A stretch of 64,000 nucleotides of DNA, from the IMG/VR virus record IMGVR_UViG_3300045988_060255; one strand, 5' to 3'. The notes below the pieces were generated by a model that did not search any database, was not told the origin of the DNA, and saw only the letters and a program-made list of their open reading frames with translations. Both the position numbers and the translations under genes were made by a program. Below, in pieces: positions 1,718-61,116 of this stretch (position 1 is the stretch's first letter; the number at the start of each line of letters is the position of its first letter). The DNA is from a virus.

Positions 1718-1930
1718 ATGGATAAGTTACAAATCGCTCATGATCTGGCTGTTGCTAAGGTATGCGCTGAATTACCGGGAAGCCTGGACAACTCTCATAT
1801 CTGCCAGAGATACTTCAAATACCGCGCATAGTTTGTTGATCTTCTGGATTCCCATGATGAAGATTACTTTCTCAATGAACTGGATAAAGAGAAAGTAAAT
1901 AATTGTTCTCCATCTCGGCGCTACTTTTAA
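1718..1930 (+). pseudogene. small acidic protein ORF interrupted by in-frame TAG at 1829-1831
   Basis: AAAGGAGG RBS, ATG 1718, 37 codons, TAG, then 32 more in-frame coding-looking codons (FVDLLDSHDEDYFLNELDKEK...) ending at TAA 1928-1930. Confidence 0.45.
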
Positions 1931-2145
1931 TCGTTAGACTTTTCACCGGATGTGCTCTTTGTTGTTCTGCCAATATAGAGCACATCCTTAAGGGAAAACT
2001 GAATTTTATTATTAATTCCGTTTTCATTCCATTCGTATTCAACAATTGACTGTTTGTCGAAATTAATTTTTTCATACACCTCTGCCGGGACACGCAACGT
2101 TTCTCCGTTTTTAAACTTAATAATTGTTTCGTCGGCAATCTTCAC
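1927..2145 (-). CDS. hypothetical protein (72 aa)
   Basis: GTG start at 2145 with GGAGGTG RBS 5 nt upstream. Confidence 0.65.
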   Translation of the reverse strand: MKIADETIIKFKNGETLRVPAEVYEKINFDKQSIVEYEWNENGINNKIQFSLKDVLYIGRTTKSTSGEKSND

Positions 2146-2160
2146 ATTCTCACCTCCTAC

Positions 2161-2364
2161 TTAATCTGCTTTAGCAAAGAAAACACCAATCGGGTCTTCG
2201 ATATGAAATTCATCAATCATTGTCTGAATCTCATTGCTGTTGAAAATTCCTTTCTGCATCTTTCCATAAAATGTTTTTGGCGTAATTCCAAGCATTTTAG
2301 CAACGTCCGTCTGAGATTTTCTATTCTTCGCAAATATTCCTCGAAGTTCATCAGTTTTTATCAT
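2161..2364 (-). CDS. small HTH DNA-binding protein (67 aa)
   Basis: HTH-like SQTDVAKMLGITPKTFYGKMQKG. ATGA overlap with the upstream gene. Confidence 0.7.
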   Translation of the reverse strand: MIKTDELRGIFAKNRKSQTDVAKMLGITPKTFYGKMQKGIFNSNEIQTMIDEFHIEDPIGVFFAKAD

Positions 2365-3144
2365 TTTGTCATCTCCTGCTCAATCACCGGAAGAATCCCG
2401 CTCTCTTTCAGCTTGTCGTAAAGAAATATTCTTCCTTTCTGTGACCACTTAGTATTCATCTTCACATCCGGTCTACCGTCCGATCTCACGATATCAACGG
2501 TCTCGGAATGTGTATAGCCCATACAGTGATATTTGCTGTACAGTAACCACTGTCCGCTCTGCTTGTACTGGATTCCGATGTCATGCAGAATATCGTTCAT
2601 CTTCTTCCCAGACATTCCATAATCCTTAGCAATCTGGGTAATGGTCACAAGTCCCGGATTCTTTAAGATTTCATCATAGTAGTCGGCTTTCGGTTTCAGT
2701 TCGCCGATTATCTGGTTTTTGACACTGATTTCCGTTGACAGTAACTTGACCGAATCTTTCAACTTCGCAATGGTCTGGTCTGCCATCTTCAATGCTCTAG
2801 CAAAAAATTTGTTCTGGCGTGTTCCATGCTTTTTCGAGGTCTATGAAATACTGTCGGTATTGTCTGCCTTTTTCTGACCGCTGAATCATGCAAATCTGTT
2901 TTGCCATGTCTATAGAAACTTGATAATCAGAAATTTCTCTTTCTGCTCCGTTATTTACAAGTGTGGAACTTTTCACGCTTGTAAAATCGCTTCCCTCAGT
3001 GAAACCATATGTAGACATTCTTTCAAACCATCTCGAAAATCTGTCTGTAATTTCAAGCCCTGCATACAGCTCTCTGGCTGATACAGTAGGTTGTTCACTA
3101 CTGTAATTAATAGGTATTAACTGTTCCGTAATATCGTCTCCTCT
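2361..3144 (-). pseudogene. phage antirepressor (AntA-like N-terminal + KilAC C-terminal domains) split by a frameshift
   Basis: N-terminal part: ...QPTVSARELYAGLEITDRFSRWFERMSTYGFTEGSDF...EKAWNTPEQIFC*. C-terminal part: ARALKMADQTIAKL...ITQIAKDYGMSGKKMNDILH. The frames join if the A6 run 2802-2807 loses one base. No ATG at the 5' end. Confidence 0.75.
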
Positions 3145-3306
3145 CTAATTACTATCTCTAATTGTTGCTTCTTCTTTCTGAGTATCACTCTCAACAGTAT
3201 CAGCAACGCCATTCATGTATCCCAAAATGTAGTGTTGCTTATCTACCGGAAGCTTATTGATTCGTGTTGTTACATCTCTGATAAGCTGTCTCTTTTCTTC
3301 TGACAT
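3145..3306 (-). CDS. hypothetical early protein (53 aa), first gene of leftward operon
   Basis: GGAGGTG RBS, ATG 3306, MSEEKRQLIRDVTTRINKLP..., TAG 3145-3147. Confidence 0.6.
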   Translation of the reverse strand: MSEEKRQLIRDVTTRINKLPVDKQHYILGYMNGVADTVESDTQKEEATIRDSN

Positions 3307-3340
3307 TTGTTCACCTCCACATCTCTTACGTTATGAACGT

Positions 3341-3369
3341 ATAATATCACATCTATAACGCATTGTCAA
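3341..3369 (-). promoter_or_regulatory. leftward early promoter TTGACA-17-TATTAT
   Basis: Minus-strand -35 at 3369-3364, -10 at 3346-3341, read directly. Confidence 0.7.
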
Positions 3370-3912: not shown

Positions 3913-4062
3913 ATGAGAAAAAGAAAAACTATCGACAAAATTACCAGAAAAATAAAATGCCCGGCAATCACTTGTCGGAGTGCCAATGTACAGATAATTA
4001 GCAGGGGTTTCTTTTCTACTAAATATCAATGCAAAAAATGCGGGCGCGTTTTTAAGGGATAG
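3913..4062 (+). CDS. Zn-ribbon small protein (49 aa); the -1 frame continues to 4259
   Basis: AAGGAGG RBS. CPAITC...CKKCG motif, TAG 4060-4062. See the finding on the -1 frame continuation. Confidence 0.6.
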   Translation: MRKRKTIDKITRKIKCPAITCRSANVQIISRGFFSTKYQCKKCGRVFKG

Positions 4063-7089: not shown

Positions 7090-8517
7090 TCATTTAGAAA
7101 TTTCTGTGATTCTGGTAAACGTTCCCTTTGGGATAAACTCAAAAACGAACCCTTCTGTCGGATGCGGGATGCGAATGAAGTACCATTTAAGTCCCGAACT
7201 GTCGGTTTCTGTGTACTTCATTACCTCTACAACTGCACCTTTTTTCAGTTTTGGAAACAGCTTTGACGGGCTGTTTTTGTTTGATTTTGTATAGCATTTT
7301 GTGTCCTTTTTTATCTGCGCAATGTAGGCTCTAGTGTTCTGCTTTTTGGCTGTATCTGAGCCTGAAACTGACGTTGTATTTTTAACTAAACTGTAATTTG
7401 GAGTGCAGAATTTTGTTCCTGGAAGGTTGCTGTTGTAGTAACTTTTCTGGCATACACCACCACCATTTGCGATAATTGTAGAGCCACCAGAAGTATTTCC
7501 TTCGACTGTCCAGAACCGATCTCCTGACACTTTTATTACGATTCCAGTATGCGTAAATTCTCCGTTTCTGTAGAAAATAACAATGTCTCCGACTTTTGGA
7601 TTGCTGTTTAAAGTAAACAAATCTGCCATTGTCGGGCAGTAAACGTATGGCCAGTGTTTCAAAAGTTTCTTCGCTGTGTCTAAGCCGAATGCTTTCATCA
7701 TGCACCATGAAACGAATGCAGCGCACCATGGCTGCCCCTGATAAGATGGTTTTATATCTCTCCAATATTTTGTGTAATTATTCTCTCCGGCGTTTGCTGT
7801 TTTGCTGTCAAGTTGACTATTGCTTGCCTTTTCGAGATAGCCAACCTCGTTCTTTGCGATCTGGATTAATTTGTCAATTGCGTTCATGCTCGTTTCCTCA
7901 CTTTCTGGAAAATATGTTTTTAATGCGTTATAAACAACTCTCTGCCTGCTCTCGTATGCCCCAACTTGGTTCCCTGTGTCCGTCTGACAAGCTGCATAGA
8001 GATTATCGAGCGTATATGGCTTCTGGGTCTTTGCCAGAATCCGTGTTACCGCCCCCTGCCCGCCTTGGTGCCTAAAGTTCACGCACATGGCTTGTGCTCT
8101 AGCGTCCGTAACGCCCTGTTTAAGGGCTTCATCTGCATAGGTGGCTAATTGTTCATCCATAAGGCTATCTTGGCATTTAACACCCAAATCGGACGAAATA
8201 AGGGCAACTATGGTGTCGGCAAGCTGTGACACTCTGGAGATATTAAAACATTCCCAGTTTGCGGTCTGAACTTGTTCCAGAAGTCTGACCTTGTCTATCT
8301 TCTCCCACTGTTCCGGGTCGGCATCGTAAATTCGTTCCAGAAGTGTTTTAGCTTCGGTTGCGTACCACGCTCCTGCCCCGATTGTAATTGCGTGTTCTTC
8401 AGAAGAATTGGTGTAGGCTTCCGTGAAGTCCGAATAATCCTGTTGTCCGTAAACCTGTCCACCAGTTTCGACCGCATAAATAATCTTCCTGAGAACTGTT
8501 TTCTGTTCGTTTGTCAT
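7090..8517 (-). CDS. multidomain endolysin (N-terminal glycosidase-like domain, central CHAP peptidase, C-terminal SH3-like binding domain)
   Basis: CHAP signature QPWCAAFVSWC...FTHTGIV...TVEGN. C-terminal KKGAVVEVMKYTETDSSGLKWYFIRI is SH3-like. Confidence 0.8.
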   Translation of the reverse strand: MTNEQKTVLRKIIYAVETGGQVYGQQDYSDFTEAYTNSSEEHAITIGAGAWYATEAKTLLERIYDADPEQWEKIDKVRLLEQVQTANWECFNISRVSQLADTIVALISSDLGVKCQDSLMDEQLATYADEALKQGVTDARAQAMCVNFRHQGGQGAVTRILAKTQKPYTLDNLYAACQTDTGNQVGAYESRQRVVYNALKTYFPESEETSMNAIDKLIQIAKNEVGYLEKASNSQLDSKTANAGENNYTKYWRDIKPSYQGQPWCAAFVSWCMMKAFGLDTAKKLLKHWPYVYCPTMADLFTLNSNPKVGDIVIFYRNGEFTHTGIVIKVSGDRFWTVEGNTSGGSTIIANGGGVCQKSYYNSNLPGTKFCTPNYSLVKNTTSVSGSDTAKKQNTRAYIAQIKKDTKCYTKSNKNSPSKLFPKLKKGAVVEVMKYTETDSSGLKWYFIRIPHPTEGFVFEFIPKGTFTRITEISK

Positions 8518-9133
8518 ATCACGTTGCTCCTTTCTGTTAAATATGCCTTATAATCTCCGTATTTGCCACTAGAATCAATTTTTATATGTTATTCAAGGAT
8601 TTTATCGAATTACGCATAAAATCGTTATATGAGTCAAATACGAGGTTGTTAATAAAAATGGTTTGCCTTGGGCTGAAACGAATTGAGAATGTCAGGGTCA
8701 AATAACGCTTATTTGACGATTAATATATATCTCGTATATATATTAATTATATTCTTATTCTATTTCTTATTCTTATTCTATTGCGTTACATTGCGTTACT
8801 GGTAACGTTATTGTAACGTTACATTGAGATATTATGTAAACGAAAATTGCTCGTTGACAGAATACTTATTTCTGAATTTTATTATTTTCTCAGATGATTG
8901 ATTTATTCTGAAAACAAGCAAAATTTACGTTTACAAATTATTCATTTTTTATTTTTAATATAGTTACATTTTAGTACGGTCAGGGCTGAGATTTTGAGGC
9001 TATTTGGCAAATAAGGGCTTATTTCGGTTTTTTCGGGAAAATGCGCTCTTATTTGTGATTTTAGGCTTCTTATTTGCAAAAATTAACATTAAAATAAGCA
9101 AAAAGAGCCGATGGAAGTGAGATTTTACAATGA

Positions 9134-9793
9134 TTATGACATCACATACTCAATTAATTTCTGTGGTGTGCTGAATGTTCCCATACCCTCTACATATATA
9201 TCTTTTGTATAGTTTCCCGAACTTCCCGAAATATTTGGAAAATTTTCATTGAAAGAAACAGCAGATAATCCATCATAGCTGTAAGGACCACTTCCAAAGC
9301 CGCTAAGGAAACTATAATAGCCATCGTATTTGTTTTTTCCTACGCCTAAATATGCATATTGTTCTTTTTCGTAAGTTACATTTCCGTCCTTATCCCACTG
9401 TTGCCATGTTCTTTTCACAAATTTTCCAATGCTAGGTGCATATTTACTAGAAAATGTTGCTTCGAAAAGTAGGTATGCATATACAAAATATGAATGCCAT
9501 GGAGGTGTTGAGCCCGATACATTGACCAAAGAAGCACCAGCATTTCCTAGTTCTGTTATTGAATAGTTGCCGTTTTCTGATACGTTCATAATGGCTTCGC
9601 TATATTCGCAAACATAAGAATTTCCGTCAGAATCGCGTCCTGTAAATCGTGTAAAGATTCGAAGCAATTCTTTTGGAGAATCATCGCTTTTCTTCCAGAG
9701 AAGTGTATCACCGCCATAAATCTCGTCTGTATTTACACCATTGATGGGAAAATCTTCAATTTCCTGTCTGTTCAAAAACGCCTTATATATCAT
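9134..9793 (-). CDS. tail-tip associated hypothetical protein (219 aa)
   Basis: Track ORF immediately downstream of the large receptor-binding protein. Confidence 0.55.
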   Translation of the reverse strand: MIYKAFLNRQEIEDFPINGVNTDEIYGGDTLLWKKSDDSPKELLRIFTRFTGRDSDGNSYVCEYSEAIMNVSENGNYSITELGNAGASLVNVSGSTPPWHSYFVYAYLLFEATFSSKYAPSIGKFVKRTWQQWDKDGNVTYEKEQYAYLGVGKNKYDGYYSFLSGFGSGPYSYDGLSAVSFNENFPNISGSSGNYTKDIYVEGMGTFSTPQKLIEYVMS

Positions 9794-9797
9794 CCAA

Positions 9798-12700
9798 TCA
9801 GCCCTCCTTAAATGTGAAATACAATGTATCTGTTCGGTCAGTTCCTGCGGCTACAAGAGCGTCGTAATCAGCTTTCTTGATTCGCTTTATGCACCTTAAT
9901 TGTGCCTTTTTTAATTGCCCGGAAGTACTACCAGAATCGCCAGAACCGTCCGTAAAATCATCAATCATTGCCGGTGAAAATTCAGAATCCGAACCGTCTG
10001 TAAATTCTGCATAACTGATTGTCGGCATTTCAGATCGTGTAAGGTTAACCGTTCCAGATATTTCAGGAGTATATTTTCCTAACTGCTGACTGTTGCTATT
10101 AAACGGTGCATTATTGGCAGAATAGGTGTCAATCATGTCTGTAGCGCCGATTTTAAGCGTCCTGCTCATAATGTATGAATGAACGTACCATTGCAGTTCT
10201 GTAGGCTCCTGATCGTCGTGCTGAATCTGCTTCTTATAGTAGAGTTCGACTGCCTGTCCAACCATGTTCAGTGGGTTTCCCTGAACATCGGCGGTATATC
10301 CCTGCGCACGGTAATATTTCCGTAAATCTTGATTTACGAATACGCCATAGCAGATTTTCATAATCGGTTCAGCCCTTGAAATACCGCCATATTCATCAGC
10401 ATCCCAAACATAATTCAGCCAGTCTTCATTTCCTACAAAGAAGCTATTTCTGTTGTAATAAACGTTGTTATCATACGCTTCTTGCGCTGTATAGTCGCCT
10501 TGCGTAAAGCCAAAGGCTCTATTCGGGTCGGGGTCACAAAATATAATATTCGGGAACCAGATTCTGCCCTCTTTTGCGGTAAAACTCTTGAATGTATCAA
10601 GATGTACTTCTTCGTTATTGTAGTATTTATAAATGTTCTGATTACCGGTGGTCTGCCCGTATCTGTAACTGTTCTGGCGAAGTTTCAGATACTCAAACTT
10701 GCCGTCCCTGTTCATCCAACCAAAACGGTCATTCTGCAAGCATAAATCTTTCAGAATATTTACTACGTTCATTTCATTTGAATTATTCGTATCAGGCACA
10801 TAGGTGTCGTCCCAATGCAACTTTGTACTGACCTGTTCAAGCCCTAAAAACTCAAATAATTTATCCCTGAATTGCTTTTGAGTCAGCTTTTTCTTCTTAT
10901 CAGTCGTCTGGTTTTTATACCACCTTGCAATGTCAGTATTTCGTAATTTATACAGATAATCGTATGCGATAAAATTACGTGTCAGGGAATTTGCTTTCCG
11001 CTCTGCGCTGTCGATTTCGCCTGTGAAGATTTTGATTTTTGTTCCTTTTCTCTCGACGTAAACTTCAATTTTTCCATGCGGATAAAACTCTTCCGAGGTA
11101 CCGTTAAACTGGTCGTGGTGAGCCTGAAACGTTATCTGATTACAGACACAGCCGCCAAAAATGAAATAGCTTTCAGAACAAATAGACTCCTGCAAAGTAA
11201 GCGTATTCTGGTCGATATTTTCATTTGTAAGGTCGGCAAATTCGCCATTAATCCAGTGTACTGTAACATTGATTGGTTCAGTTTTTTCTTCTTCAACTTC
11301 GCCAGAACCACCACTTGAGCTATCATCAAATGGGTTTTTTCCGTCGTTCGTGACTTTAATTTGAAAACTGTCGGAACCAACAAATTTGGAAGTTCCGTTG
11401 ACTGTGGCATTATAAGAAACTGTGATGGTCTTAGAACCTGCGGTAGAACTATCGAAGCCAGAAATATCATAATCTGTAATTTCTTTCTCGGTTCCATCCT
11501 GTCTTACTTCTGCAACGGTAAGACCCGATGGGTCGAATGCTTCTCCGATTTTGTAATAAACCTTGGATGGAAAACTTGTGATTCTTATTCCGGAAAGATC
11601 GTATACGGTTACTTTAAAAGTATCGGTATGTGTTTTGTAGGTTACTGTGATTGTTTTTTCGCCAACAGAAGAACTATCAAATCCAGATATTTCAAATCCG
11701 CTTGTCTTTGTTTCTGATGTGCCATCAGTATATTTAACAAGGATTGACAATCCAGTTGCGTCGAATACATCTCCTTTCGGATATTCGGTTTTTACAGGCA
11801 TAGTTTTTACTTCGATTCCAGAAATGTCTACCACAAGAATACTGAAATCCACGGTCTTTTCATCGAATGTAACCGTTACAGTTTTATTTCCGTATACTGA
11901 CATATCCGGGCTTGATAAGGTATATCCTGTTACTTGTTCTGACGTATTATCGTTGTAGTATGCAGCAATTACAAGTCCTGCGCTGTCAAAAGTTTCGCCT
12001 ACGAAATATCTGGCTTTGGTTGGCATATGAGTAACTTCAAGTCTGGTTGCCCGAATTAACCATGTGATTGTGCCAGATGCTCCCCACGGTGAACCAGAGA
12101 TTTCATTTGTTTTTTTGTTCAGTGTGATATTTGTTGTAACAGGCGTGTTAAAAGCATTTTCCCAAATGACCGTAACGCTTGCAGGAATAGACACGTTTGT
12201 AAGTTGTGTTCCGCGAAACGCCTGAGCGCCAATAGTTTGAACGCCGTCAGGAATTACCAGATTTTTAAGTGAAGTATTGTAAAACGCATTATCTCCAATG
12301 TTTATAACACTTGCAGGAATAGTAATTTCCGTGATTTTCCCACAGTTCGCAAAACACGATGTTGGTATTACTGTTATTCCGTCTTCAATGGTAACTGTTT
12401 TTAAAGTACTAGAACATGGTGTAAAATGTGATGTTCCGGTAAATTTAACCGTGCTTTTTAGCGTAAGATTTTCGAGCGCAGAAAGCAATTTCGTTCCATT
12501 TGTTCCGTCAATAGTTCCGCCGCGAATTATCAAATTCTTGCAATTTGGAATAAAAATACCGGATGAATTGAATATGGAATCTGCATTTCCGATTTCAACA
12601 TTATCTATTGTCGCCCCTGAAAAAGCACCGGATGATAACGAAGTCAACGACGTTGGAAAAACAATGTTTTTTAATTTTGGACACTCATTGAATGTGCCGC

Positions 12701-14342
12701 CCTCAATTGTTTGTAAGCCATCATGAAAAAGTAGTTCTGTTAGATTAGGACAAGAGTAAAACACGCCTCCTAGAATCGTTTTAATTGATGACGGAAATTC
12801 AAGTTTAGTTCCTAAAAATATTGAAAAATTTCCACGTTCGATTTCTGCGATCGTGTTTGAAAAAACAATGCTTTCCAATTTTTTGAATGAGGAACTAAAT
12901 CCGCTCCTAATGCCAGTGATTCCGTCTCCAAAAACCATTTTTGTACATCTTTTATATAAGCTGTCAGGGATAGAAATGTCGGATTTCTCTAAACTATCAG
13001 ATAAACTATATGTGAATTTTCCAGTTCCAGATATGGTTAAAGTATTTGCATCAATGTCGAATTCAGCTGTCACATCTTCGTAATTCGGAGAACCGATATG
13101 TATCAAAAGAGAACTGTATACTGTGACATTTGACGTAATTGCCACGCCAAAATATTCTACATTAATAGGAATTACACCGGCTTCCAAAAGCGCCTTATTT
13201 TCAATTGTGTATCCGCTTGTCACTTCCTCTGAGCCGTCTGAGTATTCTACAGTTATATAAGATACCTTAAGATCTAATGCATCACCGACAAAATAATATT
13301 TGCCTTGACAAAATATGTCCGAGATTCTTTCTGGTTGCATAATAGTAACTTCAAATGTACAAGTGAAACTGCCATAATGAACTGTAATTTCACATTGCTT
13401 TGGAGAACTACTGTCAAAACCAGAATATGTACAATCTTTTGTGACATCTATAGTGTTTCCGTCACTTGCCGTTGCCGTAACCACAATGCCTGTAGAATCA
13501 AATTCTTTTCCTATGTGATAATTTACCTTGCTTGGCATAGTCGTTACTGATATGGTGGTAATAGAAGCTTCTGAGACGGTAATCTCAAACGTTGTGGTTT
13601 TGCCAGATACAGTAACGGTTATGGTCTTTGTACCTGCGGAACTGCTGTCAAATCCTGATAATTCATAATTGGTGATGGTTTCTGATGTTCCATCATTGTA
13701 TGTTTGAGACACTGCAAGGCCTGTGCTGTCAAATAATTCGCCCTGATAGTACGTGGTCTTATCTGGCATTTTTGACACAGTAATTCCAGTGACATATTTG
13801 TCAACAAACTTCTCATAGCTGACTTTCTGTGATACACCTGCGTTCTTTACCAGAATTGAAACCGGAACCGTAGAAGATACGGAAAGAGTTAGGGTTGTTG
13901 TGGCTTTACCGTCGGTGATTGACGATGTACCAGTGTATGAACTGCTTGTAGGTCTCTGAACGACATTGATAAATAATGTCTGTCCTTCTATCAAGAATAC
14001 TTCGTATTTCAGCGCATATGATGAAGATGTACTTGAATAATATACATATCCTTCAACTCTGATTTTGAGGAATCTTTTTCCTGATGTGAGTGTTCCTTCC
14101 TGTCGGTAAATATAATAAACCGCGCCATCCCTGCGCCAGATTTTGAGTTGTTCGGCGTTTTGCCCGAATCCGATAAAATTGTTACCAGAAACATATATAG
14201 TACTGGCAGTCTTTCCTGCATAGGTAAACCAGTCAACACCTGTTACACTGACTACATCATCATCGTGTTTCTTGTTGTTAACAATAGCAGTCATCCCGGC
14301 TGTCGTATTCAATAAACTGTCAAAAGATACTGTATCTGCCAT
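9798..14342 (-). CDS. giant tail/receptor-binding protein with ~6 Ig-like repeats, BspA-type leucine-rich repeats and a C-terminal tail-tip-like region
   Basis: GGGAGGA RBS. Repeated ...Y.GE.FD.TGL.V...Y.DGT.E.IT.Y..SGFDSS..G.KTITV modules. LRR block ...IPDSL..CT.L..I.F..GIT.I....F..C..L. Confidence 0.8.
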   Translation of the reverse strand: MADTVSFDSLLNTTAGMTAIVNNKKHDDDVVSVTGVDWFTYAGKTASTIYVSGNNFIGFGQNAEQLKIWRRDGAVYYIYRQEGTLTSGKRFLKIRVEGYVYYSSTSSSYALKYEVFLIEGQTLFINVVQRPTSSSYTGTSSITDGKATTTLTLSVSSTVPVSILVKNAGVSQKVSYEKFVDKYVTGITVSKMPDKTTYYQGELFDSTGLAVSQTYNDGTSETITNYELSGFDSSSAGTKTITVTVSGKTTTFEITVSEASITTISVTTMPSKVNYHIGKEFDSTGIVVTATASDGNTIDVTKDCTYSGFDSSSPKQCEITVHYGSFTCTFEVTIMQPERISDIFCQGKYYFVGDALDLKVSYITVEYSDGSEEVTSGYTIENKALLEAGVIPINVEYFGVAITSNVTVYSSLLIHIGSPNYEDVTAEFDIDANTLTISGTGKFTYSLSDSLEKSDISIPDSLYKRCTKMVFGDGITGIRSGFSSSFKKLESIVFSNTIAEIERGNFSIFLGTKLEFPSSIKTILGGVFYSCPNLTELLFHDGLQTIEGGTFNECPKLKNIVFPTSLTSLSSGAFSGATIDNVEIGNADSIFNSSGIFIPNCKNLIIRGGTIDGTNGTKLLSALENLTLKSTVKFTGTSHFTPCSSTLKTVTIEDGITVIPTSCFANCGKITEITIPASVINIGDNAFYNTSLKNLVIPDGVQTIGAQAFRGTQLTNVSIPASVTVIWENAFNTPVTTNITLNKKTNEISGSPWGASGTITWLIRATRLEVTHMPTKARYFVGETFDSAGLVIAAYYNDNTSEQVTGYTLSSPDMSVYGNKTVTVTFDEKTVDFSILVVDISGIEVKTMPVKTEYPKGDVFDATGLSILVKYTDGTSETKTSGFEISGFDSSSVGEKTITVTYKTHTDTFKVTVYDLSGIRITSFPSKVYYKIGEAFDPSGLTVAEVRQDGTEKEITDYDISGFDSSTAGSKTITVSYNATVNGTSKFVGSDSFQIKVTNDGKNPFDDSSSGGSGEVEEEKTEPINVTVHWINGEFADLTNENIDQNTLTLQESICSESYFIFGGCVCNQITFQAHHDQFNGTSEEFYPHGKIEVYVERKGTKIKIFTGEIDSAERKANSLTRNFIAYDYLYKLRNTDIARWYKNQTTDKKKKLTQKQFRDKLFEFLGLEQVSTKLHWDDTYVPDTNNSNEMNVVNILKDLCLQNDRFGWMNRDGKFEYLKLRQNSYRYGQTTGNQNIYKYYNNEEVHLDTFKSFTAKEGRIWFPNIIFCDPDPNRAFGFTQGDYTAQEAYDNNVYYNRNSFFVGNEDWLNYVWDADEYGGISRAEPIMKICYGVFVNQDLRKYYRAQGYTADVQGNPLNMVGQAVELYYKKQIQHDDQEPTELQWYVHSYIMSRTLKIGATDMIDTYSANNAPFNSNSQQLGKYTPEISGTVNLTRSEMPTISYAEFTDGSDSEFSPAMIDDFTDGSGDSGSTSGQLKKAQLRCIKRIKKADYDALVAAGTDRTDTLYFTFKEG

Positions 14343-14409
14343 AATCATCCTCCCGTCTATTTATAAAATAAAAGAGCACATGAGCTGTGACACTCATGCA
14401 CTCTGGTTG

Positions 14410-14841
14410 TTAGTATTCGATCAGTGCGAACCGCATCTTATTATAAAGAATGTTCTTTGTCTCTTCGTCCACATTGATAATTTTGTAATCCACATCGGGC
14501 ATATAAAAAACCCCCGTTCTGTAGGTGTTCTGCTCATCATCCCAATATGTGACATTGTACTTCCGCTGCGCTCTGTTGACCAAGCCAGAAGCAAATGCAG
14601 ACTGCAAATCAATCTTCTCTGCCAGATAAAGCGGTCTGGTATTAAAATCAATCTTTGTCTTAAAATTCGGGCTTGTGTCCCTGTGCAAGAGATTATTCAA
14701 GTCCCTGTATGCTTCTACTTCTGTTCTCTGGTTTGGAGTTGCAGTGTAATCATCGTAGGCGAGGTATTTGTTTGGAACAACTTTGCTTCCAAACTTCAAG
14801 AGCCATCCTTCAAAACTGCTTCCTGCAATAAAATCACTCAT
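14410..14841 (-). CDS. putative distal tail protein (143 aa)
   Basis: Position between the tape measure and the tail-tip protein. Confidence 0.5.
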   Translation of the reverse strand: MSDFIAGSSFEGWLLKFGSKVVPNKYLAYDDYTATPNQRTEVEAYRDLNNLLHRDTSPNFKTKIDFNTRPLYLAEKIDLQSAFASGLVNRAQRKYNVTYWDDEQNTYRTGVFYMPDVDYKIINVDEETKNILYNKMRFALIEY

Positions 14842-14850
14842 TTACCTCAC

Positions 14851-17800
14851 CTACCTTTCAAATAATCCGAATCCATTGCGGTTTCTGAACTGTTCGTTTT
14901 CCTCTTGCAAATATCCGACTAAGTGACCATCTGCATAAATTGCCATGCCTTTGACAGCTTCCCGGATAACCTGCGCGATATTCTGATTGTTGTCGAATGT
15001 GTTGTTACTGATTGCAATTACTTCACGGCGAATATCGTCACCAAAAGTACCATTCGCAGATACCGGCTTCTGATACATTCTGGCAGTCGGAACAGCCTTT
15101 ATATTGGCTTCCATTTGTGGGAGCTGAATGCCCTGTATAGATGTGCTTATATCCCCGATTGTAGAATGTAATGCCGGAATCATATTCTGCATACCTATCT
15201 GGAAGCCCTGCATGGTGTAGCCGCCAAGTTCTTCAAATACCTGAGATGGGCTGTGAATTTTGAGAACTTTGCGAAACGTATTTGATATATTTTGTGCGAT
15301 CTTTTGCACATTTGCATAAAGTTGTTGTGCCGCTCCTACAATTCCATTATTTAAGCCAATAATAGAGTTCCAACCGATATTATACAGGTTTCCAATGGAA
15401 TTGCTGATTCTGCTTCGGATTCTTCCGAACCATGTGAACGACGCAGAAAAGCCCGGCTCTAATCCGTTTCGGAATCCTTGACCGCAGTATTCTGCAAGCT
15501 GCTTGAACCATCTGGACGGAGAGTGGGAGTCTACTGCTTCCTGCGCAGGGGCTTTTACGCTGTTATTCATTAGGTCAAGAATCGAAGTCTTTGTGCTTTC
15601 TTTCTTCCCGTTAATTCCAGACTGTAATCCCTCTGCAATGTTGCTTCCAAGGGTTTTACCGCTTGATTTCGCAGTTTCTTCTGCATCTTTTGCAGATGAT
15701 TGAATTGTTGAGTTAAGCTTTTCAGTGACTTTGCTGCCGTTCTGCTCAATCCCACTACCTACGGCAAGAATCTGATTCTTTCCGAGTTCCGTAACTAATT
15801 CAAAACCAGAATTGTTATCCAGAACGCCGTTGATTGCCCCCTGCAGAGTTGAATCCATTGTACTTTGTAGAGTACTTTCATAGTCAGAAATACCTTTTCC
15901 AAACTGCACCATCTGTCCGTTTGCCAAAGTATAGTAACCGTTATCGTCCGGCTCTAATCCCTTTGCAATTTCCTGATAAATCTGTAATGCTTTTTCGCCG
16001 AGAATCTGTTTTCCATTTTCCCAGATACCACCCATTTCATCAATTGCATTTGCCGTATCTGTTACCAGAGTTGCAAAGTCAACGGTCTGGATAAGTGTCT
16101 GGAATCCCGTAAGCTGTTCTGAGATATCCTCAAACGACACATTGTTAATCCGATCAGCCATATTTGAAAACTGATTAGAGGATGTTTCCGCTGTATCTCC
16201 AAGGTCTTTGACTGGTTTGTTTACTCCTGCTATCGCATTCTCGAAATCTTCGGACGAAATTCCAAGATTATTAAGCTTAAGTTCAAGTTCAAATAACGCC
16301 TGTTCTGTGCTATATCCGTTATCTTTTAGCTCGGAAAGGAATGTTAATAAAGGATATGCTTGTTCGCCTGAAATCTGGCTTGCGTGAACCAAACCGAGAA
16401 TAGCATCTTCATACTCCTGAAATACCTTTAAATCGTCCTCTGTCAGTTTATCTCCGACTCCGAATATATCTTTCATCCATTCGTTGATAGCACCGGTAAA
16501 ATCTCCTTTTTGATATCCGAATACATTATCTTCCAAAAACTCTCCAAAAGTTTTATCTTCGCCGCCGAACAGATTGACGCTTATCCATTTTCCAAGGTTG
16601 AAACCTGCCATTGCAGTTCCTAAGACAACCATACTGTCTGCGAGTCCTGCTACAAGTGTAGAACCTAGTCCAGAGCCAAAGAATGTCTGCAATGCACCAC
16701 TGGCTGTGGAAAGAACCGTTCCTAACCCACCGAAGATTGTTCTGAGTGCACCGATAGAGCTAACTACATTGTATATGTTTCGAGCAAAATTAATGCTCCC
16801 TCTTATAATAAAAAACCGTGCTAGAGCTTCGCCAAGAGCTTCTATCTGCTTATCGTCAAGCTTTCCTAAGGCTTTTGCGAAAGCATCTAAGGCGCTTACT
16901 AATGCGTTAATCAGAGGGGCGCCGATATCGTTCAGCATTATATCGAAAAAGCTGATAAACCCATCTGCGAATCCCTCGGCAAATGGCTGGAATACATCCC
17001 ATACATCACCGATTGTTTTTATTAACGAATCCCAATTAATATTTTTGATGAAATTCACAATTACGTCTTTAAGATTCCCGATTCTTGTCCATAACCCGTC
17101 CCAATCAACATCAATCACTCCAAATTTATCAAGTGCGGCAACAGTAAGACCAAGTCCTGCCGCTATCGAAGCATATGGATGCGCTGCTAACATGGTGATT
17201 CCTTTGCCTATCACTCCTTCTTTACCGAAAATGCCACCGAACCATGTAAGTCCTTTAAATGCTACAAAAGCTGTCAGGAGCTGACCAAGGAAATAGCCGA
17301 TAGATTGTGCCTGTTCTGGCGAAAATGTTGCGATAAACTCTTTGAACCTGTCAACCAGATCAGGAAGTTTATTAACTCCATCTGCCGCCTTGTCAAAAAA
17401 ATCATCGAAGAAATCAAGTAATCCTGTTCCGACATTCTCAGCAAATGGCTCTAATACATCCCATAACTGTGCAAGGGAAGCATTGATTTTGTCCCAATTG
17501 ATCTTTACAAGAAAATCATTGAAAGCATTAATTAATCGCGGTAATCCCTTTTCTCCTAATGTCCACTTTCCAAGTGGAACTAAAAAGTGTTTCCAGAAAT
17601 CTTTTAATGCTGTCCATGTGAAATCTCTGAGTTGTTTCAATCCATTGTTCCAGAGATTTTTTAGTGCTTTTGTGGTAGGTTCTGCGACTTTTGCAAGTTT
17701 CTTAAATGTGTCTGTAACTTTATTTGCGAATGCCATAGCCTTATTTTCCATGGAATTGTAAGCGGCATCCCATTTCTTCTGGTATTCGTTCAAAAGTTTA

Positions 17801-20800
17801 TCCAGTGCATCATTGAGGATTCCTGCGTCAATTGCAGATGTGTCAATTTTTGGCGCTTTAATTTTAGAATTTGCAAGGTCAGACAGAGAACTATCGTCTT
17901 TGCTCATAATTTCAAGTTCATCATAGGATGCGAGGAACTGTTTTAATTTTTTTGCGCTCTTAGTCGCATCTTTCAGATTGTTATTTGTATCTTTTGTAGC
18001 ATCATCTACGTCCGAAATTCCAGAATCGTCTATGGAATCAAGTGCATTCGAGAGATTTTCACTTCCGCCACCGATAGAACCGAACATTTTTCCGATTTTG
18101 GTATCAACTCCAAGAAGCGAACCAATGTATGTCAAAAGTCTCTGGAATGCGATTACAAGACCATTGATATATGGCAACACTGCCGCAACTACAGGCATAA
18201 AGATGTTCCCTAATGCTCTGGCACAGGATACTAAGTTTGCACGAAGTATACGTAACTGGTTGGCTGGCATATTTATCGTATTTGCCATATCCGCCCATGC
18301 GTACCGGGTGGAATCCAGTATCACTATTGTTCTCAGCATTGCCTTGCTTGCTTGGTCCATATTAGAAACAGACGTTTGTATACCAAGATTTGCCGCATAT
18401 TGCTGTAAGTTTGCCACACGAATGTTTGCACCATATTTGTCTACAGCACGGCTCATACCTACTAATCCAGAGGACAAGTTCTCATAAACTGTGCTAAAAT
18501 CAAGATTCTTAACAGATGCAAGGTCAGCACCGATCATGGTTAATGCATTCGACAGTTTTAATGCCTGCTCAGAAGTCGTTCCCATAGATGATGATAACTG
18601 CGCAAACTGTCCTTGATAATTCAAGAGCATGGACGGATCCATACCGAGTGATTTACCTGATTTATTTGCGGTCAAAATCGCATTATCAGAAACATCGAAC
18701 CCAGACATTTTGGATGTAAGTTCTCTAGCTCTATTACTAAATGAATTTGCGTAAGCTTCCGCAGAATCATACCCTGCTTCTGACCAAGTCTCTCCCGTTT
18801 TATCCGCTACCTGGCGGAATGCTGCTTGAAAGTAGTTGTAATCTTCGAGAAAATTCATGGAACTTTCAATTGCGCTTCCAAATTTTCCAACAACAAATTT
18901 CAACGTCCAGAATTTTGCCACCAGAGACATGATGCTAGGCAAACTTTTCTTTGCCTTGCTTCCTACACTTCCAACGGCGTTTGCAAGTTTTCTGACCTTT
19001 CCTGTAGAAGTACCCGCACCCTGTCCTAATCTGGAAAATGCGCCTGCGGTAGACCTTGCCGCTCTACCAGCATTTGCCCCAGAATTTGCCAACTGAGCAA
19101 TGGCCTGCGTCATTTGAATTGTACTGCTACTGATTCTAGGAGCGGTACTCATCGTCTGGAAGAATGATTTTAAGCTATTTGCCAGATCATTAAGCTGAGT
19201 TGCTGTCTTTCCAGTTTTATCACCTGCATTTGCCAACTGAGATATTGACTGAACAAATGTATTAATTGGCTGAGAAATATTGCCTATTTCAGAGAATGAG
19301 CCTACGATTTTTTCAAGTTCTTCACCAAGTTTCGGGAGCTTTGATGCAACTGCATCAATAGAACCACCGGCATTCGCTAATCTTGACAGTGAAGAAACAA
19401 ACCGGTTCACATTGTTTGATACATCTGGAATACTGCTAAGACCAGATAATTCGGAAATCATGTTCTGAATCTTTCCAGACACATCACCTGTGGAATTTAT
19501 TGTTTCGTTCAGTCTGCGGATTGCATTTACGAATGAGTTTAATCCGCTGTCTTTCAGATTAAGACTTCCAAGCGTGCTCATGGACTGAGTGAACTGCTGT
19601 AACTGGCTATTTACTGTCGATAAATCCAGACCGTTCAATTTTGCTTCTATATTGTTCTTGAGCTCATCCGTATTAATTGAGAGATTTACTTTTACCGGGT
19701 CATAGGTAAGCGTGGATGCCTTGTTGATGGCATTTCTAATATCTCTGGCAATCTTTTCTTCATTAATCTTTACGTCAATTGGAATCTGACCGTTTGCAGA
19801 CTCCATGGCAGACGCAATATTTCTTTGAATTGAGGCACCGAGTTGCGTGCCTAACTCATTTACCGAGCTGTATACCCTGTCCGATGCCATTGCTGCATCT
19901 GAACCAGACAAAGCCTGAATTGATATTGGTTTGATGGAATCCCTTACTTTTTTGAGGTTTTCCAAGACAGTTTTTAACTGTTCCGCATCGTTTACCGTAT
20001 CCTTGGGAATTAATGTAGGAAATTTTTCTGCCAGTTCGCCCCATGCAGAATCGAGGTTAATTCCTTTTGTTGCATCGACGGTAATATTTCCAAGGTGCTG
20101 TTGAAGTAATTCTCTGAACTCGCCTTTTCCAACATTGAATTTAAGCATATCGGAAACATAAATTTTCTTACCTTTAAAATAATTGTAAAAATCCTGCCAT
20201 TCCTGTTCGGCACCGTCCAGATAACTTCCGAGATTGGATTTTACGACTTTCCCGCTCTGCTCAATGCTTTTTGCAATATCATCCAGAGTCTTTCCCCAAT
20301 CACCGGCTGTGAAGTTTTGTCCGTCAAATGAATTTGTAAGCTGCTGTGCCAACAAATCTATCTGTCTTTGAAGTTTGGAAGCGGCACCGCCTTTTAATTC
20401 AAACGCACTTGCAAGCTGTTTGGATAATGCAGATGCGTCTATTCTGGTAGTCTCTATAGATTTCTCAACAGAATATTTCAATTTTTCGGACATATCCGCT
20501 GAATTAATCTCTACATTTACTTTGAGATTCTTGTTTTCAAGATTGCTCAAATTCACTTTACTGAGACGTTCGAGCTGTGCGGCCATGCTATTCAACTTAC
20601 TTGTATCAATACTTTTGATAGATTGCACGGCATAACTGAGAGTACCGATAGATTTAGAAAAATTCCTCATCAAGCCTACGCTTTTGGACATTAAGCTGTC
20701 TAATCGGTCGAATTTATTGCACAAATCATTGATTGATCTTGACGCACTGGAAACGTCACTGCTGACTTGTATCGCCAAGGTATCAATCGTATTGTCCGCC

Positions 20801-20802: not shown

Positions 20803-20834
20803 ATTCTCACTCCCTTCTCAAAAAATATTTATAG

Positions 20835-20863
20835 TAAAAAAGAGGGGACAAAAATGTCCCCTC
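20835..20863 (-). terminator. intrinsic terminator just upstream of the tape measure gene
   Basis: Minus strand GAGGGGAC-attttt-GTCCCCTC followed by TTTTTT. Confidence 0.75.
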
Positions 20864-38400: not shown

Positions 38401-38401
38401 A

Positions 38402-45012: not shown

Positions 45013-45085
45013 TGGAAACTACAGGACTCGAACCTGTGACTTGTCGGTTATGAGCCGACCGTTCTGCCAACTGAACTAAGTTTCC
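45013..45085 (-). tRNA. tRNA-Met(CAU), elongator-type (or Ile2 if lysidinylated)
   Basis: GGAAACT-TA-GTTC-AGTTGGCA-GAAC-G-GTCGG-CTCATAA-CCGAC-AAGTC-ACAGG-TTCGAGT-CCTGT-AGTTTCC-A. Confidence 0.9.
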
Positions 45086-45287
45086 TAAGCAGAGGGTTAT
45101 TGCAGTTCAAGAGTAACTTCCTCTGCTGTTGCGATTCTTGCCCTCGCAGTCGCAACAAAGGGTCTAAATGCTGTTCTACATAAGTAGAGTCCATCCGGGG
45201 CATTTGAAGCCCCTTTAATCATCCCCGTTGGGATAGATGGAACCAATTCGGAGGGGAACTATATCATGGCTAAACAATATAGTCCGA

Positions 45288-45359
45288 CTGGGCTAGCGGG
45301 ATTCGAACCCGCGAATACAGCAGTCAAAGTGCTGTGCCTTACCACTTGGCGATAGCCCA
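45288..45359 (-). tRNA. tRNA-Gln(UUG)
   Basis: TGGGCTA...CAGCA-CTTTGAC-TGCTG...GCGGG-TTCGAAT-CCCGC-TAGCCCA-G. The U1-A72 pair is typical of bacterial tRNA-Gln. Confidence 0.9.
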
Positions 45360-46354: not shown

Positions 46355-46731
46355 TCTTTCTGTTCCTCTCCGATCATAAAATCAAGAATCTTACCGGCGG
46401 TTTCGTCTTCTGGCTCGAATGGTAAACCACAGGTGCAATACTTCTCAATCGCTGTTTTAAGGCTTGCTTTGAAACCATTGTAAACTTCTCCATGTGTAAG
46501 AAGTTCGTGCCTTAAAATAGCTACTGCATCGGTTAGTTTCTGTTTTGAAAGGTCAATCTTCACATCTCCATTCAGGCTTTCATACGCCGTCGCGTTGTCC
46601 AAAAGAACTTCGACTTTATTTGCTTTAAATATCACGTATCCTTGAATTTTTTCCGGGTCTGGTTTTTCTCTTGTGAAAATTGCTGTTTTATCTATTACAT
46701 ATGCGTAATATACTGGGTCAATACTGTTCAT
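46351..46731 (-). CDS. hypothetical protein (126 aa)
   Basis: Track ORF. Confidence 0.6.
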   Translation of the reverse strand: MNSIDPVYYAYVIDKTAIFTREKPDPEKIQGYVIFKANKVEVLLDNATAYESLNGDVKIDLSKQKLTDAVAILRHELLTHGEVYNGFKASLKTAIEKYCTCGLPFEPEDETAGKILDFMIGEEQKE

Positions 46732-47038
46732 TCTTCAAGTCCTCCATTTCCTTTACGCTGATTCCGACTATCCCTGCGCTATCTTTGCTGTCTGTAGCTT
46801 TGAAGTGTGCTTTAGGATGCTGCGGGTACATAAACTCGAACATGAGGTAATTTGCTGCATCCACGAGATATTCTGTGTTTCCGGTGGAATTATATTTCTC
46901 AATACACCGTTCCATAGACGGGAGTGCCTGCACGTTCCCGGTTTTAAAATTCTTCCTGGCAGGACCGTATTTATGATAGCTTACCTCGACTCGATTCTTA
47001 CGAAGTTCATCAAAGCGTTCACTTTATTCTTTTGACAT
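46718..47038 (-). pseudogene. conserved-looking phage protein ORF (106 codons) with in-frame TAA at codon 5 (47024-47026)
   Basis: AAGAGG RBS, then MSKE-TAA-SERFDELRKNRVEVSYHKYGPARKNFKTGNVQALPSMERCIEKYNSTGNTEYLVDAANYLMFEF... The track only found the GTG-started 3' part. Confidence 0.6.
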
Positions 47039-53465: not shown

Positions 53466-53858
53466 ATGGCATACGCAACAGTAAAAATCGAGGGAAACAA
53501 AATCATTTCTACATCTTTATGAAATACACATACTTTTGAAATTGTGAAGAAAATCCCGGGTAACTACTTTGTTTGGAATATTGGTGAAAACATGGGGACT
53601 GATCTTTATATTCCTATTTGCCAGATACTCCACCCGGGAGATAAAGAAGATTTTTCCATTAATCCCAATACATTGAAAGCTGTTTCGGTTACTTCTGAAG
53701 AATACAAGGCACTTCAAAAAGCCGCATCTTACGGTGTAAACAGTTTGAAAACTGTTGAAAAAGCACTGAGAAGTAAAAGACATGGTTATATGTCAGACAA
53801 GAAAAGGGGGCTTGCAGCTCTTACAATTGATATTTTCAAAAGACTTACGGAAAATTAG
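53466..53858 (+). pseudogene. protein ORF (130 codons) with in-frame TGA at codon 19 (53520-53522)
   Basis: AGAGAGG RBS, then MAYATVKIEGNKIISTSL-TGA-NTHTFEIVKKIPGNYFVWNIGENMG... The track ORF starts at the internal GTG 53544, which has no RBS. Confidence 0.55.
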
Positions 53859-58811: not shown

Positions 58812-58815
58812 AGGT

Positions 58816-59058
58816 TTAAATTCTCAAAGCTGCTCTTCTTTTTGTTCCTGTTCTTCTTTTAAAAATCCCTTTCATTACGCATTCCGTCGGTAGGCATCCT
58901 CTCATGCGATCGTTAATAAGGATGTAATCGCAAGTTCCATATGATAACCCTCCAGAATTATTCTTTGAAAAATAATCACAATGCTTACATTGCTTTTCTT
59001 TTAAATTCTGAATTTCTCTGAAAGACATTTCGCCCCATGGTTTAACAGCTATTTTCAT
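58816..59058 (-). CDS. Cys-rich small protein (80 aa)
   Basis: Track ORF. Confidence 0.6.
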   Translation of the reverse strand: MKIAVKPWGEMSFREIQNLKEKQCKHCDYFSKNNSGGLSYGTCDYILINDRMRGCLPTECVMKGIFKRRTGTKRRAALRI

Positions 59059-59887
59059 TCTCTTTACCTCGCATTCCTTGTACCATCTTCATTTTCAAAT
59101 GTTGTGCTATATGTTCTCTGACAGATTCCTCTGGAAATGGGATTTCAAGTGATCGCTCCAGAATCCTGTTTGTGATTCTCTCGTCATATTTCAGTTCTGA
59201 TATCTGGCAGTTGCTCGTGAATATAGTGATTTTCCTGTCGACATACCGCCCGTTGATAATGCTATAGAATCTTTCGTTAATCCACTCCTTACCAGAATCA
59301 GCGCCGAAGTCGTCAATGATAAGGATTTCTGTTCTGGACAAATCCTCTATCAACTTTCCTTCCGTATTCCCTTTGTCTCCCCATGTATTCTTGATCTCAT
59401 CAAGAATCCTGAGGGATGTGGTGAACTTTACTGGCTTCTGGTATTTCTTCATAATTTCATTCGCCAAGCTGCATACTGTTTTGGTTTTGCCAGAACCTTT
59501 TGCGTTTGAGAAAAGGTATAGCCCTATTCCTTTCTTCTGCATATCAGGAAGATTTTTAAACCAGTAATTTACCGCCTGAGCCGCCTGAGAAAATACTTTT
59601 CGGCTCTCGGCGTTCAAATATACACTTGACTTCAAATCATTGAAATTTGAGCCTTTAAACACGTTTGGAAGCTCTGCAAATTTCAATTGATTTTCAAGGA
59701 TTATTCTTTTTCTGATTCCGCAAGGGCATTCCTCGCAATAGGGAATACCACTTGCATCTCTTACCCATCTCCACCCGCTGTCCCCGCATTCAGGGCATTC
59801 AAGCGAACGGGGTGTCTGATTCTTCTCCATTCCATTCTCCAAGTGGGATGATTGGTTCGACATTTCTTTGAGTTGCGTCAGCTCCAT
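59042..59887 (-). CDS. DnaC/IstB-like AAA+ helicase loader with N-terminal Zn-ribbon
   Basis: Walker A SNAKGSGKT, Walker B LIIDDFG, CPECGDSGW...CEECPCG. The start may be an internal ATG. Confidence 0.8.
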   Translation of the reverse strand: MELTQLKEMSNQSSHLENGMEKNQTPRSLECPECGDSGWRWVRDASGIPYCEECPCGIRKRIILENQLKFAELPNVFKGSNFNDLKSSVYLNAESRKVFSQAAQAVNYWFKNLPDMQKKGIGLYLFSNAKGSGKTKTVCSLANEIMKKYQKPVKFTTSLRILDEIKNTWGDKGNTEGKLIEDLSRTEILIIDDFGADSGKEWINERFYSIINGRYVDRKITIFTSNCQISELKYDERITNRILERSLEIPFPEESVREHIAQHLKMKMVQGMRGKENENSC

Positions 59888-60620
59888 TTCGCATATCCTC
59901 CCTGTTGTGGTATTTGTTTTCGAGTATCTTTAAGAAGTTGTTTGGTTTCACAAACCATTCAAAATTTATCATAAAATCAGTTTTCTTCCCCATAAGGAAG
60001 TCACTGTTTTTTACGTTCCTCAGAGCTTCCATTACCTTATCCATGCCATATTCTCGGATTCTTGCTTTCAGCATTTGCGTTCGCCTTGCTGTCATTCTTG
60101 CGATTGGCTGAATCCCGAACTGCTGAAGCTTGTTCCATTCATCAACAACTTTCTGAACATCTCCGGGCTTGACTAAATCTTTTTCGCAAGAAATCTGCTC
60201 TGGAATCTTCGGCGTACGTTCTTCCTCTGATAATTCTTTCTGGCGTTTTCTGTGCTCGGCAACCCGTTTTCTTGTCTGCTCTCTGATTCTTTCAAGCCCG
60301 TCAATATTCTGATGCTCTTCCCATCCGGGAATTGAAAGCAATGTTCCATCTCTGGTTATCATGCCGAATTTTTCAAGAATTGTAAGTGCAAGTTCGATCA
60401 CACTCTCATCAAAGTCCAGCTCGTCAGCCAACATTTTATTTGTATATGGAATATTCTCTGTCAAAAAAATAATCCCGTTTGAATTACAACGCCCTGCCAT
60501 CGTCAGGAGCATCATCCAGATTAGAACGATGTTGTTCCCCTCTGGAAGTTTTCTGATATGCCGGATTTTTTTGTTATCGAACATATCTATTTCTAATCGA
60601 ATCCAACTCACATTTGTCAT
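59799..60620 (-). CDS. phage replisome organiser (DnaD-like)
   Basis: N-terminal WIRLEIDMFDNKKIRHIRKLPEGNNIVLIWMMLLTMAG... Confidence 0.75.
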   Translation of the reverse strand: MTNVSWIRLEIDMFDNKKIRHIRKLPEGNNIVLIWMMLLTMAGRCNSNGIIFLTENIPYTNKMLADELDFDESVIELALTILEKFGMITRDGTLLSIPGWEEHQNIDGLERIREQTRKRVAEHRKRQKELSEEERTPKIPEQISCEKDLVKPGDVQKVVDEWNKLQQFGIQPIARMTARRTQMLKARIREYGMDKVMEALRNVKNSDFLMGKKTDFMINFEWFVKPNNFLKILENKYHNREDMRNGADATQRNVEPIIPLGEWNGEESDTPFA

Positions 60621-60657
60621 TTAGCCACCTTCCCGTCTGACAAGGACATTTCCGTCC

Positions 60658-60813
60658 TTACCACATTGATTTTCGGATAAAATTCTCCATCATTGTTTCT
60701 TTCCAACTTGATATGTGCTTTTCACAGGTATCGTCTTCCTCTATCAGGATGCCTTTGCGGTCGCACAGCCCGTTGTCGTTTTCAATACAAGTTTCGCATG
60801 TTTTATCTGCCAT
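60658..60813 (-). CDS. Cys-containing small protein (51 aa)
   Basis: GAGAGGAGA RBS, MADKTCETCIENDNGLCDRKG... Below the track cutoff. Confidence 0.5.
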   Translation of the reverse strand: MADKTCETCIENDNGLCDRKGILIEEDDTCEKHISSWKETMMENFIRKSMW

Positions 60814-61116
60814 TTTCTTCATCTCCTCTCGCAATCAATCCTCCACAATACGGACAAAATGTATAATCCAGTCGATTAAGTGGTTTTCCGCAACTACACC
60901 ATGCTTTTACGGGCCATGATTTATAGTAGTCTGGCATAGAGTTGAAGTCATTATCGCTTAGCACTTTCATTTTTACAATTTTCCCGTGCTTCGAATATTC
61001 TATTCTCGCATCCTCTTTCCCATCAGAATACCCGTGGCTATATGCGCTGTTCAGCTGATATTCTTCAGCTGATATTCAATGGATTTGACAGCGTTATCTA
61101 AATACTTATAAGCCAT
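60803..61116 (-). pseudogene. Zn-ribbon protein gene disrupted by a 14-bp tandem duplication
   Basis: ttcagctgatattc at 61050-61063 and again at 61064-61077. Removing one copy restores a 99-aa ORF MAYKYLDNAVKSIEYQLNSAYSHGYSDGKEDARIEY...CSCGKPLNRLDYTFCPYCGG... Confidence 0.75.

Follow-up and report, generated by a model that had tools for sequence, protein, structure and literature searches.

The 64,000-nt stretch analysed here, IMG/VR virus record IMGVR_UViG_3300045988_060255 (hereafter the window, at its full length), is most of the ~78-kb genome of a widespread, viable human-gut temperate phage, in which six small early or accessory genes carry gene-breaking alleles while the lysis, virion and packaging genes stay open. 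We consider it probable, at about 0.8, that these alleles are loss-of-function polymorphisms of an ordinary kind, affecting accessory genes that a viable phage can dispense with under some conditions. An original prediction, made from the sequence of the window, had proposed eight lesions in small genes, and all eight sequence features are found, each at exactly the position that it had been given. Six of them prove to be true lesions, each in a gene of which relatives have intact copies, and comprise four nonsense alleles, one +1 frameshift and one 14-bp tandem duplication, whereas the other two, TAG 3145 and the G3 run at 4056, are native gene ends. Among the explanations that the prediction had offered, the one borne out is a relaxation of selection on accessory genes that an otherwise functional phage can spare, as the alleles are heritable, the structural genes are intact and the relatives behave alike.

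The window was compared with 27 metagenome loci (L001-L027), 30 IMG/VR loci and 15 complete genomes retrieved full-length, so that the comparison as a whole spans 15 complete genomes and ~60 related contigs from this ~78-kb phage. An intact orthologue, with either a sense codon or an unbroken frame, is found for all six true lesions (6/6), and the intact form is the majority allele in five of the six broken genes. TAG 1829, TGA 53520 and the 49-aa open reading frame (ORF) with the G3 run at 4056 are read on the + strand, while TAG 3145, TGA 44084, TAA 47024, the T6 run (A6 on the + strand) and the 14-bp duplication are read on the - strand (Table 1).

Table 1. Positions in the window of the genes at the eight sites, followed by other landmarks of the phage genome.
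Feature	Position	Strand	Remarks
70-aa ORF, function unknown	1718..1930	+	TAG at 1829-1831, codon 38
AntA + KilAC (ANT) antirepressor	2361..3132	-	Frameshift, T5 to T6, at 2802-2807
Conserved 53-aa ORF	3145..3306	-	TAG 3145 is the native stop
49-aa Zn-ribbon (CxxC...CxxC) gene	3913..4062	+	G3 at 4056-4058 in the last sense codons; ends ...FKG-TAG
99-aa Cys-rich ORF	43826..44125	-	TGA at 44084-44086, codon 14; better-spaced ATG starts MDTKG
106-aa ORF	46718..47038	-	TAA at 47024-47026, codon 5
130-aa ORF	53466..53858	+	TGA at 53520-53522, codon 19
Zn-ribbon ORF, 97-99 aa when intact	60803..61116	-	14-bp tandem duplication at 61050-61077
Accessory/regulatory island	1-6.9 kb		XRE-type helix-turn-helix (HTH) gene facing a small ORF and the AntA/KilAC antirepressor; lipoprotein; LytTR regulator
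Lysis, tail, head and packaging block	7090..40138	-	Every ORF open
CHAP endolysin, 475 aa	7090-8517	-	
TerL, 578 aa	38402-40138	-	RtcB gene next
tRNA-Thr(UGU), tRNA-Met(CAU), tRNA-Gln(UUG)	44251..45359	-	ARAGORN, Rfam
Integrase	57306-58520		

Six inherited alleles and two native gene ends

Across the clade, the ratio of non-synonymous to synonymous polymorphism (pN/pS) is 0.07-0.25 for all six broken genes, and the six ORFs are therefore real genes under constraint. The lesion alleles are reproduced in assemblies from other submissions, built with different assemblers, and because each allele recurs in such independent assemblies, this assembly-level evidence rules out an assembly artefact. 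Additionally, the carriers of each nonsense allele share a near-identical haplotype of at least 1.5 kb around the lesion, which indicates that each of these alleles arose once. The carrier sets vary from lesion to lesion, with G007 having TGA 53520 only and L013 having TAA 47024 only among the sites that its locus covers, and the lesions have thus been reassorted by recombination.

Three of the nonsense alleles lie in the early region. Specifically, the TGA of the 99-aa Cys-rich gene, present in the window, L011 and L014, is replaced by TGG (Trp) in six relatives, and an intact 99-aa gene is found in G026. The TAA of the 106-aa gene is carried by the window, L011, L013 and L014, and its site reads TAC (Tyr) in 18 relatives; the nearest non-carrier, G026, differs within +-300 nt by a single base, which is the lesion itself. 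The TGA of the 130-aa gene, carried by the window, L011, G007 and G012, corresponds to TGG (Trp) in seven relatives. Contig counts for truncated and intact products, here and below, are rough, being taken from the cluster members listed and reflecting assemblies rather than unbiased sampling. Among the matches listed, the truncated 65-aa product of the 106-aa gene (pN/pS 0.07) is present on ~100 contigs and the intact product on ~300-360, and the truncated 104-aa product of the 130-aa gene is present on ~80 contigs and the intact product on ~390, so that TAA 47024 and TGA 53520 each lie on roughly 20% of the contigs.

The Cys-rich gene has been broken more than once. In G007 and G014, a second, independent nonsense change converts a Cys codon to a stop (…CEGVC*NGD…) nine codons past TGA 44084. 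The alignment of Cys with TGA is the classic signature of a selenoprotein, although in G007 and G014 the change is most likely another knock-out. Selenocysteine at the two TGA codons of the window was rejected, since both align with TGG (Trp) and not with Cys; no search for a selenocysteine insertion sequence was made.

In the left island, the codon that is TAG 1829 in the window is GAG or GAA (Glu) in relatives, 18-19 of which retain an intact 70-aa ORF. The stop is carried only by the window, L025 and L148-L151. A strong Shine-Dalgarno (SD) sequence, AAGGAGG, precedes the ATG of this ORF, whose pN/pS is 0.25, and TAG 1829 is a real nonsense allele.

Near the other end of the window, in silico deletion of one copy of the 14-bp repeat restores a 99-aa Zn-ribbon ORF, in line with the intact alleles, which are 97 aa long in G024 and occur as 97-99-aa forms on at least ~75 contigs. 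The duplication itself is shared by 14 of 16 relatives and by all nine exact-flank matches in IMG/VR (9/9). In L001 it is absent, but 1 nt is deleted further along, and seven contigs encode a 131-aa product (protein P0111) in which a deletion fuses the Zn-ribbon gene with the gene upstream. The junction between this gene and the adjacent 163-aa gene (60803-61597) is a hotspot of rearrangement, where the duplication, the 1-nt deletion and the fusion deletion all fall.

The sixth allele splits the antirepressor gene through expansion of a T5 run to T6. After correction of the frame, the product matches PF08346 at 5e-24, PF03374 at 6e-35 and phrog_63 at 7e-67, and these matches run across the shift; the frame-joined product thereby has both the AntA N-terminal domain and the ANT/KilAC C-terminal domain expected of an antirepressor of this type. 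All 39 of the relatives examined first have T5 and a single antirepressor ORF of at least 218 aa, with T6 in none of them (0/39), and programmed frameshifting or slippage at a run that is not conserved was rejected on this basis. The exact 73-aa frameshift product is nevertheless encoded on 14 contigs in the protein collection. Moreover, T6 and TAG 1829 occur together on L148-L151, four contigs of other assemblies whose identity to the window is 99.94-100%; the coverage of one of these contigs is 107x. T6 is therefore a real but rare allele, present on ~3% of the contigs listed. Sequencing error, which the original prediction had kept as a possible source of the two homopolymer cases, explains neither, because T6 recurs in independent assemblies and the G3 run is no lesion.

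The prediction had also allowed that homologues might reveal the short ORFs to be bounded as the genes natively are, and homologue comparison gives exactly this result for two of the eight sites. TAG 3145 was rejected as a lesion, being the invariant terminator of the 53-aa ORF: the sequence across the stop does not vary in 23 relatives, and the 53-aa gene is called in seven metagenome contigs. At the G3 run, the end of the 49-aa gene is identical in ~22 relatives, and two variants (AGG and TGG) keep the stop. In three diverged phages, a homologue with 82% identity has its TAA stop after the same residue, a GC hairpin and a T-run come next, and the downstream frame has no counterpart. Although a weak Pfam CPxCG_zf match (E = 0.03) spans the G3 junction, a frameshift there was rejected because the diverged homologues stop at residue 49 with a terminator hairpin. 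For annotation, six genes should accordingly be marked as disrupted alleles and two sites as normal gene ends.

Lesions across the phage population

The large structural genes had been described as free of lesions, and they are: their ORFs are open, and comparison with the 15 complete genomes reveals no robust lesion in 33 kb. The lysis, virion and packaging block makes up 58% of the coding length of the window, and the chance of all six lesions falling outside it is 0.42^6, or ~0.006. The relatives contribute ~25 further lesion events, none of them in a structural gene, and when the two sets are pooled the bias to non-structural genes is overwhelming.

These events come from a scan in which the window and 15 relatives were compared all against all. 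A first pass was swamped by antisense ORFs and start-codon extensions, hence the final scan used SD-guided starts, a purine-bias filter against antisense ORFs and a requirement for at least five intact genomes. It yields 0-4 robust lesions per genome in ~22 families, none of which is structural. The broken families include RtcB (at 400 aa the largest, with a nonsense mutation at codon 73), an HA-domain protein, an Apyc1-like metallo-beta-lactamase (disrupted by a frameshift), a Bro-N/ANT antirepressor, DUF4417, an MmcB-like protein of 163 aa, a 234-aa protein and many genes of 50-120 aa. The 234-aa gene, which lies outside the window, carries three different frameshifts in three genomes. Because the relatives show lesions only in non-structural genes, the small-gene bias is a property of the whole phage population. 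In G026, G017, G027, G010 and G005, the lesions strike individual genes with a known or suspected role in counter-defence or regulation, namely those for RtcB, the Apyc1-like enzyme, the Bro-N/ANT antirepressor, DUF4417 and the HA-domain protein.

The argument that random decay would hit long ORFs first, on which the original prediction had leaned, holds only for a dead prophage, which this phage is not. Lesions in a decaying prophage should include the long structural genes; none is found in the 33 kb, and the relatives are complete genomes with terminal repeats. One of the six lesions does lie within a homopolymer, as a sequencing fault might. However, every allele recurs in assemblies from other submitters, and with the structural genes intact we regard a sequencing or assembly artefact, or a decaying defective prophage, as the least credible of the explanations considered.

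Maintenance of the disrupted alleles

We propose that six small early or accessory genes were struck, four of them by point nonsense mutations, one by a +1 slip in a T5 run and one by the 14-bp duplication, and that each resulting allele, having a single origin, would have been inherited and spread among mosaic genomes by recombination. The alleles would persist since the affected genes are only conditionally useful, whereas purifying selection would purge such mutations from lysis, virion and packaging genes, leaving lesions in small genes only. We infer that the broken alleles yield non-functional or strongly reduced products, and that the six genes are dispensable for both lytic growth and lysogeny.

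The proposal resembles the pseudogenisation of accessory ('moron' or counter-defence) genes in temperate phages, in which nonsense mutations, frameshifts and duplications likewise accumulate in small early genes while virion genes stay intact, and the alleles likewise segregate among mosaic relatives; RtcB, Apyc1-like and antirepressor genes are lost in the same manner. The present phage differs in degree only, in that six alleles stand together on one haplotype and some have reached ~20% of the contigs listed or are near-fixed. In this sense it is a clear case from nature of selection dividing a phage genome into virion, lysis and packaging genes that are untouchable and counter-defence, regulatory and unknown early genes that are lost and reshuffled. 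Genes that are broken repeatedly (the 99-aa Cys-rich and 97-aa Zn-ribbon genes here, and RtcB, Apyc1-like and Ant genes in relatives) provide a cheap guide to conditionally dispensable functions, some of which may be defence-related.

Several points weigh against ordinary loss-of-function polymorphism as the whole account. A nonsense frequency of ~20% at a pN/pS of ~0.1, among the matches listed, is too high for constant purifying selection. Disruption has also struck individual genes repeatedly, as illustrated by the second nonsense mutation in the Cys-rich gene and by at least three disruptive alleles in the Zn-ribbon gene. Plain neutrality may thus be incomplete, with loss sometimes favoured, and low-level UGA readthrough as Trp may restore the original residue at two sites.

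Both the frequency of ~20% of contigs (among the matches listed) in otherwise constrained genes and the independent, repeated disruption of the same genes would fit adaptive loss, in which small early proteins are sensed by Lachnospiraceae host defences, or are costly, so that knock-outs spread by selection and recombination. In line with this, the alleles are young and of single origin, yet they are widespread, in many samples and on different mosaic backgrounds, and the near clade is almost fixed for the 14-bp duplication. There is also a precedent in a laboratory phage, which escapes the CapRel defence through a W43* stop in Gp54, a 66-aa non-essential phage protein (PMC11578894). The two cases are alike in that Trp-to-stop changes and other early knock-outs affect small early proteins and the same gene is hit repeatedly. 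For the present phage, the likeness is a resemblance seen in the sequence. Adaptive loss is further weakened by the fact that none of the six genes is known to act as a trigger or to be tied to a defence system, those other than the antirepressor having no family in Pfam, PHROGs or NCBIfam; that the allele frequencies derive from assemblies and not from unbiased sampling; and that the position of lesions within genes shows no significant skew. Hitchhiking with neighbouring modules would account for the spread just as well. We therefore view adaptive loss as an unlikely, though not negligible, explanation; if it were true, the phage pangenome would be a natural catalogue of defence triggers.

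A different possibility, also raised by the original prediction, is that the lesions are devices for attenuation or readthrough control. All three stops terminate genes in this phage (TAA 50, TGA 31 and TAG 19), and neither ARAGORN nor Rfam finds a suppressor tRNA in the window, the interval 44614-44682 giving no Rfam tRNA match at E<=1. Stop-codon recoding or suppressor readthrough was consequently rejected, as three stop types are involved, all of them used as terminators, the long genes are open under table 11 and no suppressor tRNA is present. Stop-recoded phages of the human gut likewise contain in-frame stops, but they reassign one stop, mostly in late genes and often with a suppressor tRNA; in the present phage, three stop types occur in a few early genes, as variant alleles only, with no suppressor tRNA.

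Programmed attenuation would instead keep toxic early proteins low through leaky UGA decoding as Trp, reinitiation or slippage at T6. Both TGA alleles do replace TGG, so that near-cognate readthrough would restore Trp, and the three stops that had been placed near gene starts all fall within the first 19 codons (codons 14, 5 and 19). Re-pairing of tRNA-Phe in the +1 direction on the U-run is formally possible, and the antirepressor lacks a canonical start and probably begins at ATT. On the other side, most relatives have sense codons or T5, which leaves no conserved device; TAA and TAG are involved besides TGA; no suppressor tRNA exists; TGG-to-TGA is among the commonest nonsense transitions; and T6 lies on only ~3% of the contigs listed. 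Deliberate control is accordingly not upheld for alleles of single origin, and we judge it highly improbable. Some full-length product might still be made in trace amounts, through leaky decoding of UGA as Trp or through slippage at a low level. Any such product would be a by-product and not a device, as most relatives carry sense codons.

The antirepressor start and the surrounding genome

Apart from its frameshift, the antirepressor gene appears to have an unusual start. In the lineage of the window (24 genomes), the antirepressor frame behind TAG 3145 contains no ATG, GTG or TTG until 43 codons in, and starting at the first ATG would remove 22 residues of the AntA domain. An ATT at 3130-3132 (-), 12 nt past TAG 3145, is preceded by AGAGGAG and a 5-nt spacer. 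In other lineages an ATG stands at about the position of this ATT, behind AAAGGAGA, and L024 has its ATG there. Because the SD sequence and the ATT match the position of the ATG elsewhere, and because the first ATG would cut into the AntA domain, the antirepressor probably starts at this non-canonical ATT beside a strong SD sequence, as judged from the sequence context. Initiation at the ATT is possibly coupled to termination of the 53-aa ORF. The relatives set beside the window at this start are L023, L024 and L032, and the lineage of L032 and G006 is also without a nearby ATG, GTG or TTG for the antirepressor.

As there is no canonical start, gene callers begin the antirepressor at an internal ATG inside the AntA domain, and a probable ATT start, overlooked by standard gene callers, should be added to the annotation. 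The 24 sequences do not vary over the 129 nt that separate TAG 3145 from the first ATG, and this stretch is thus uninformative on selection. The idea that the 53-aa ORF and the antirepressor form one readthrough product was rejected, since in other lineages the gene upstream is a separate HTH gene and the antirepressor has its own start. Overall, the gene resembles known AntA/KilAC (Ant) antirepressors in having both Pfam domains and phrog_63 and in following a small ORF opposite an XRE-type HTH repressor gene. It differs from them in having no ATG, GTG or TTG at its 5' end in this lineage, where ATT is the probable start, and in being split by a +1 frameshift on the haplotype of the window.

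Nearly all genes in the window are on the - strand. The structural block includes a Big_3/LRR tail protein (1516 aa), a 1983-aa protein, a 769-aa protein, major capsid E and an SPP1-type portal. The early region consists of ~24 kb of small genes with three tRNAs, DnaC-like and replication-organiser genes and divergent regulators. Many further genomes of this phage, 72-80 kb in length and rated complete by CheckV, are found in IMG/VR, many of them with direct terminal repeats, and exact-protein look-ups place neighbouring proteins in 263-1111 index blocks, from human-gut metagenomes and on contigs of 50-140 kb. A search of INPHARED returned short unannotated fragments only. The closest TerL among species genomes, at 73% identity, belongs to Blautia metagenome-assembled genomes, and the evidence suggests that the hosts are Lachnospiraceae-like bacteria.

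A ninth lesion candidate at 47500-47700 was not accepted as a gene, being a low-complexity stretch that is inconsistently open. More broadly, ~520 nt of the window (47436-47956) contain no convincing gene, here or in most relatives, and the short low-complexity ORFs within them are inconsistently open; at the equivalent position, G005 has an inserted 147-aa resolvase-like ORF. A 229-aa protein at 49319-50008 (-) gives only a sub-threshold Pfam match, to Cas_Cas5d (E = 0.005, 17 bits against a cut-off of 23). The ORF at the left edge of the window (1-513, -) is built of tandem 27-nt repeats encoding NTGNRSAAT-like nonapeptides and continues past the window end.

Within the late structural block, a TnpB-type gene of 378 aa with OrfB_IS605 and Cas12f1-like TNB domains lies antisense at 28072-29208 (+). 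The site spans ~1.4 kb in the window and ~540 nt in the close relative G026; because G026 is shorter at this site, the gene represents a mobile-element insertion between genes, none of which is broken. Similar TnpB genes are found at other places in the relatives L006, L013 and L018.

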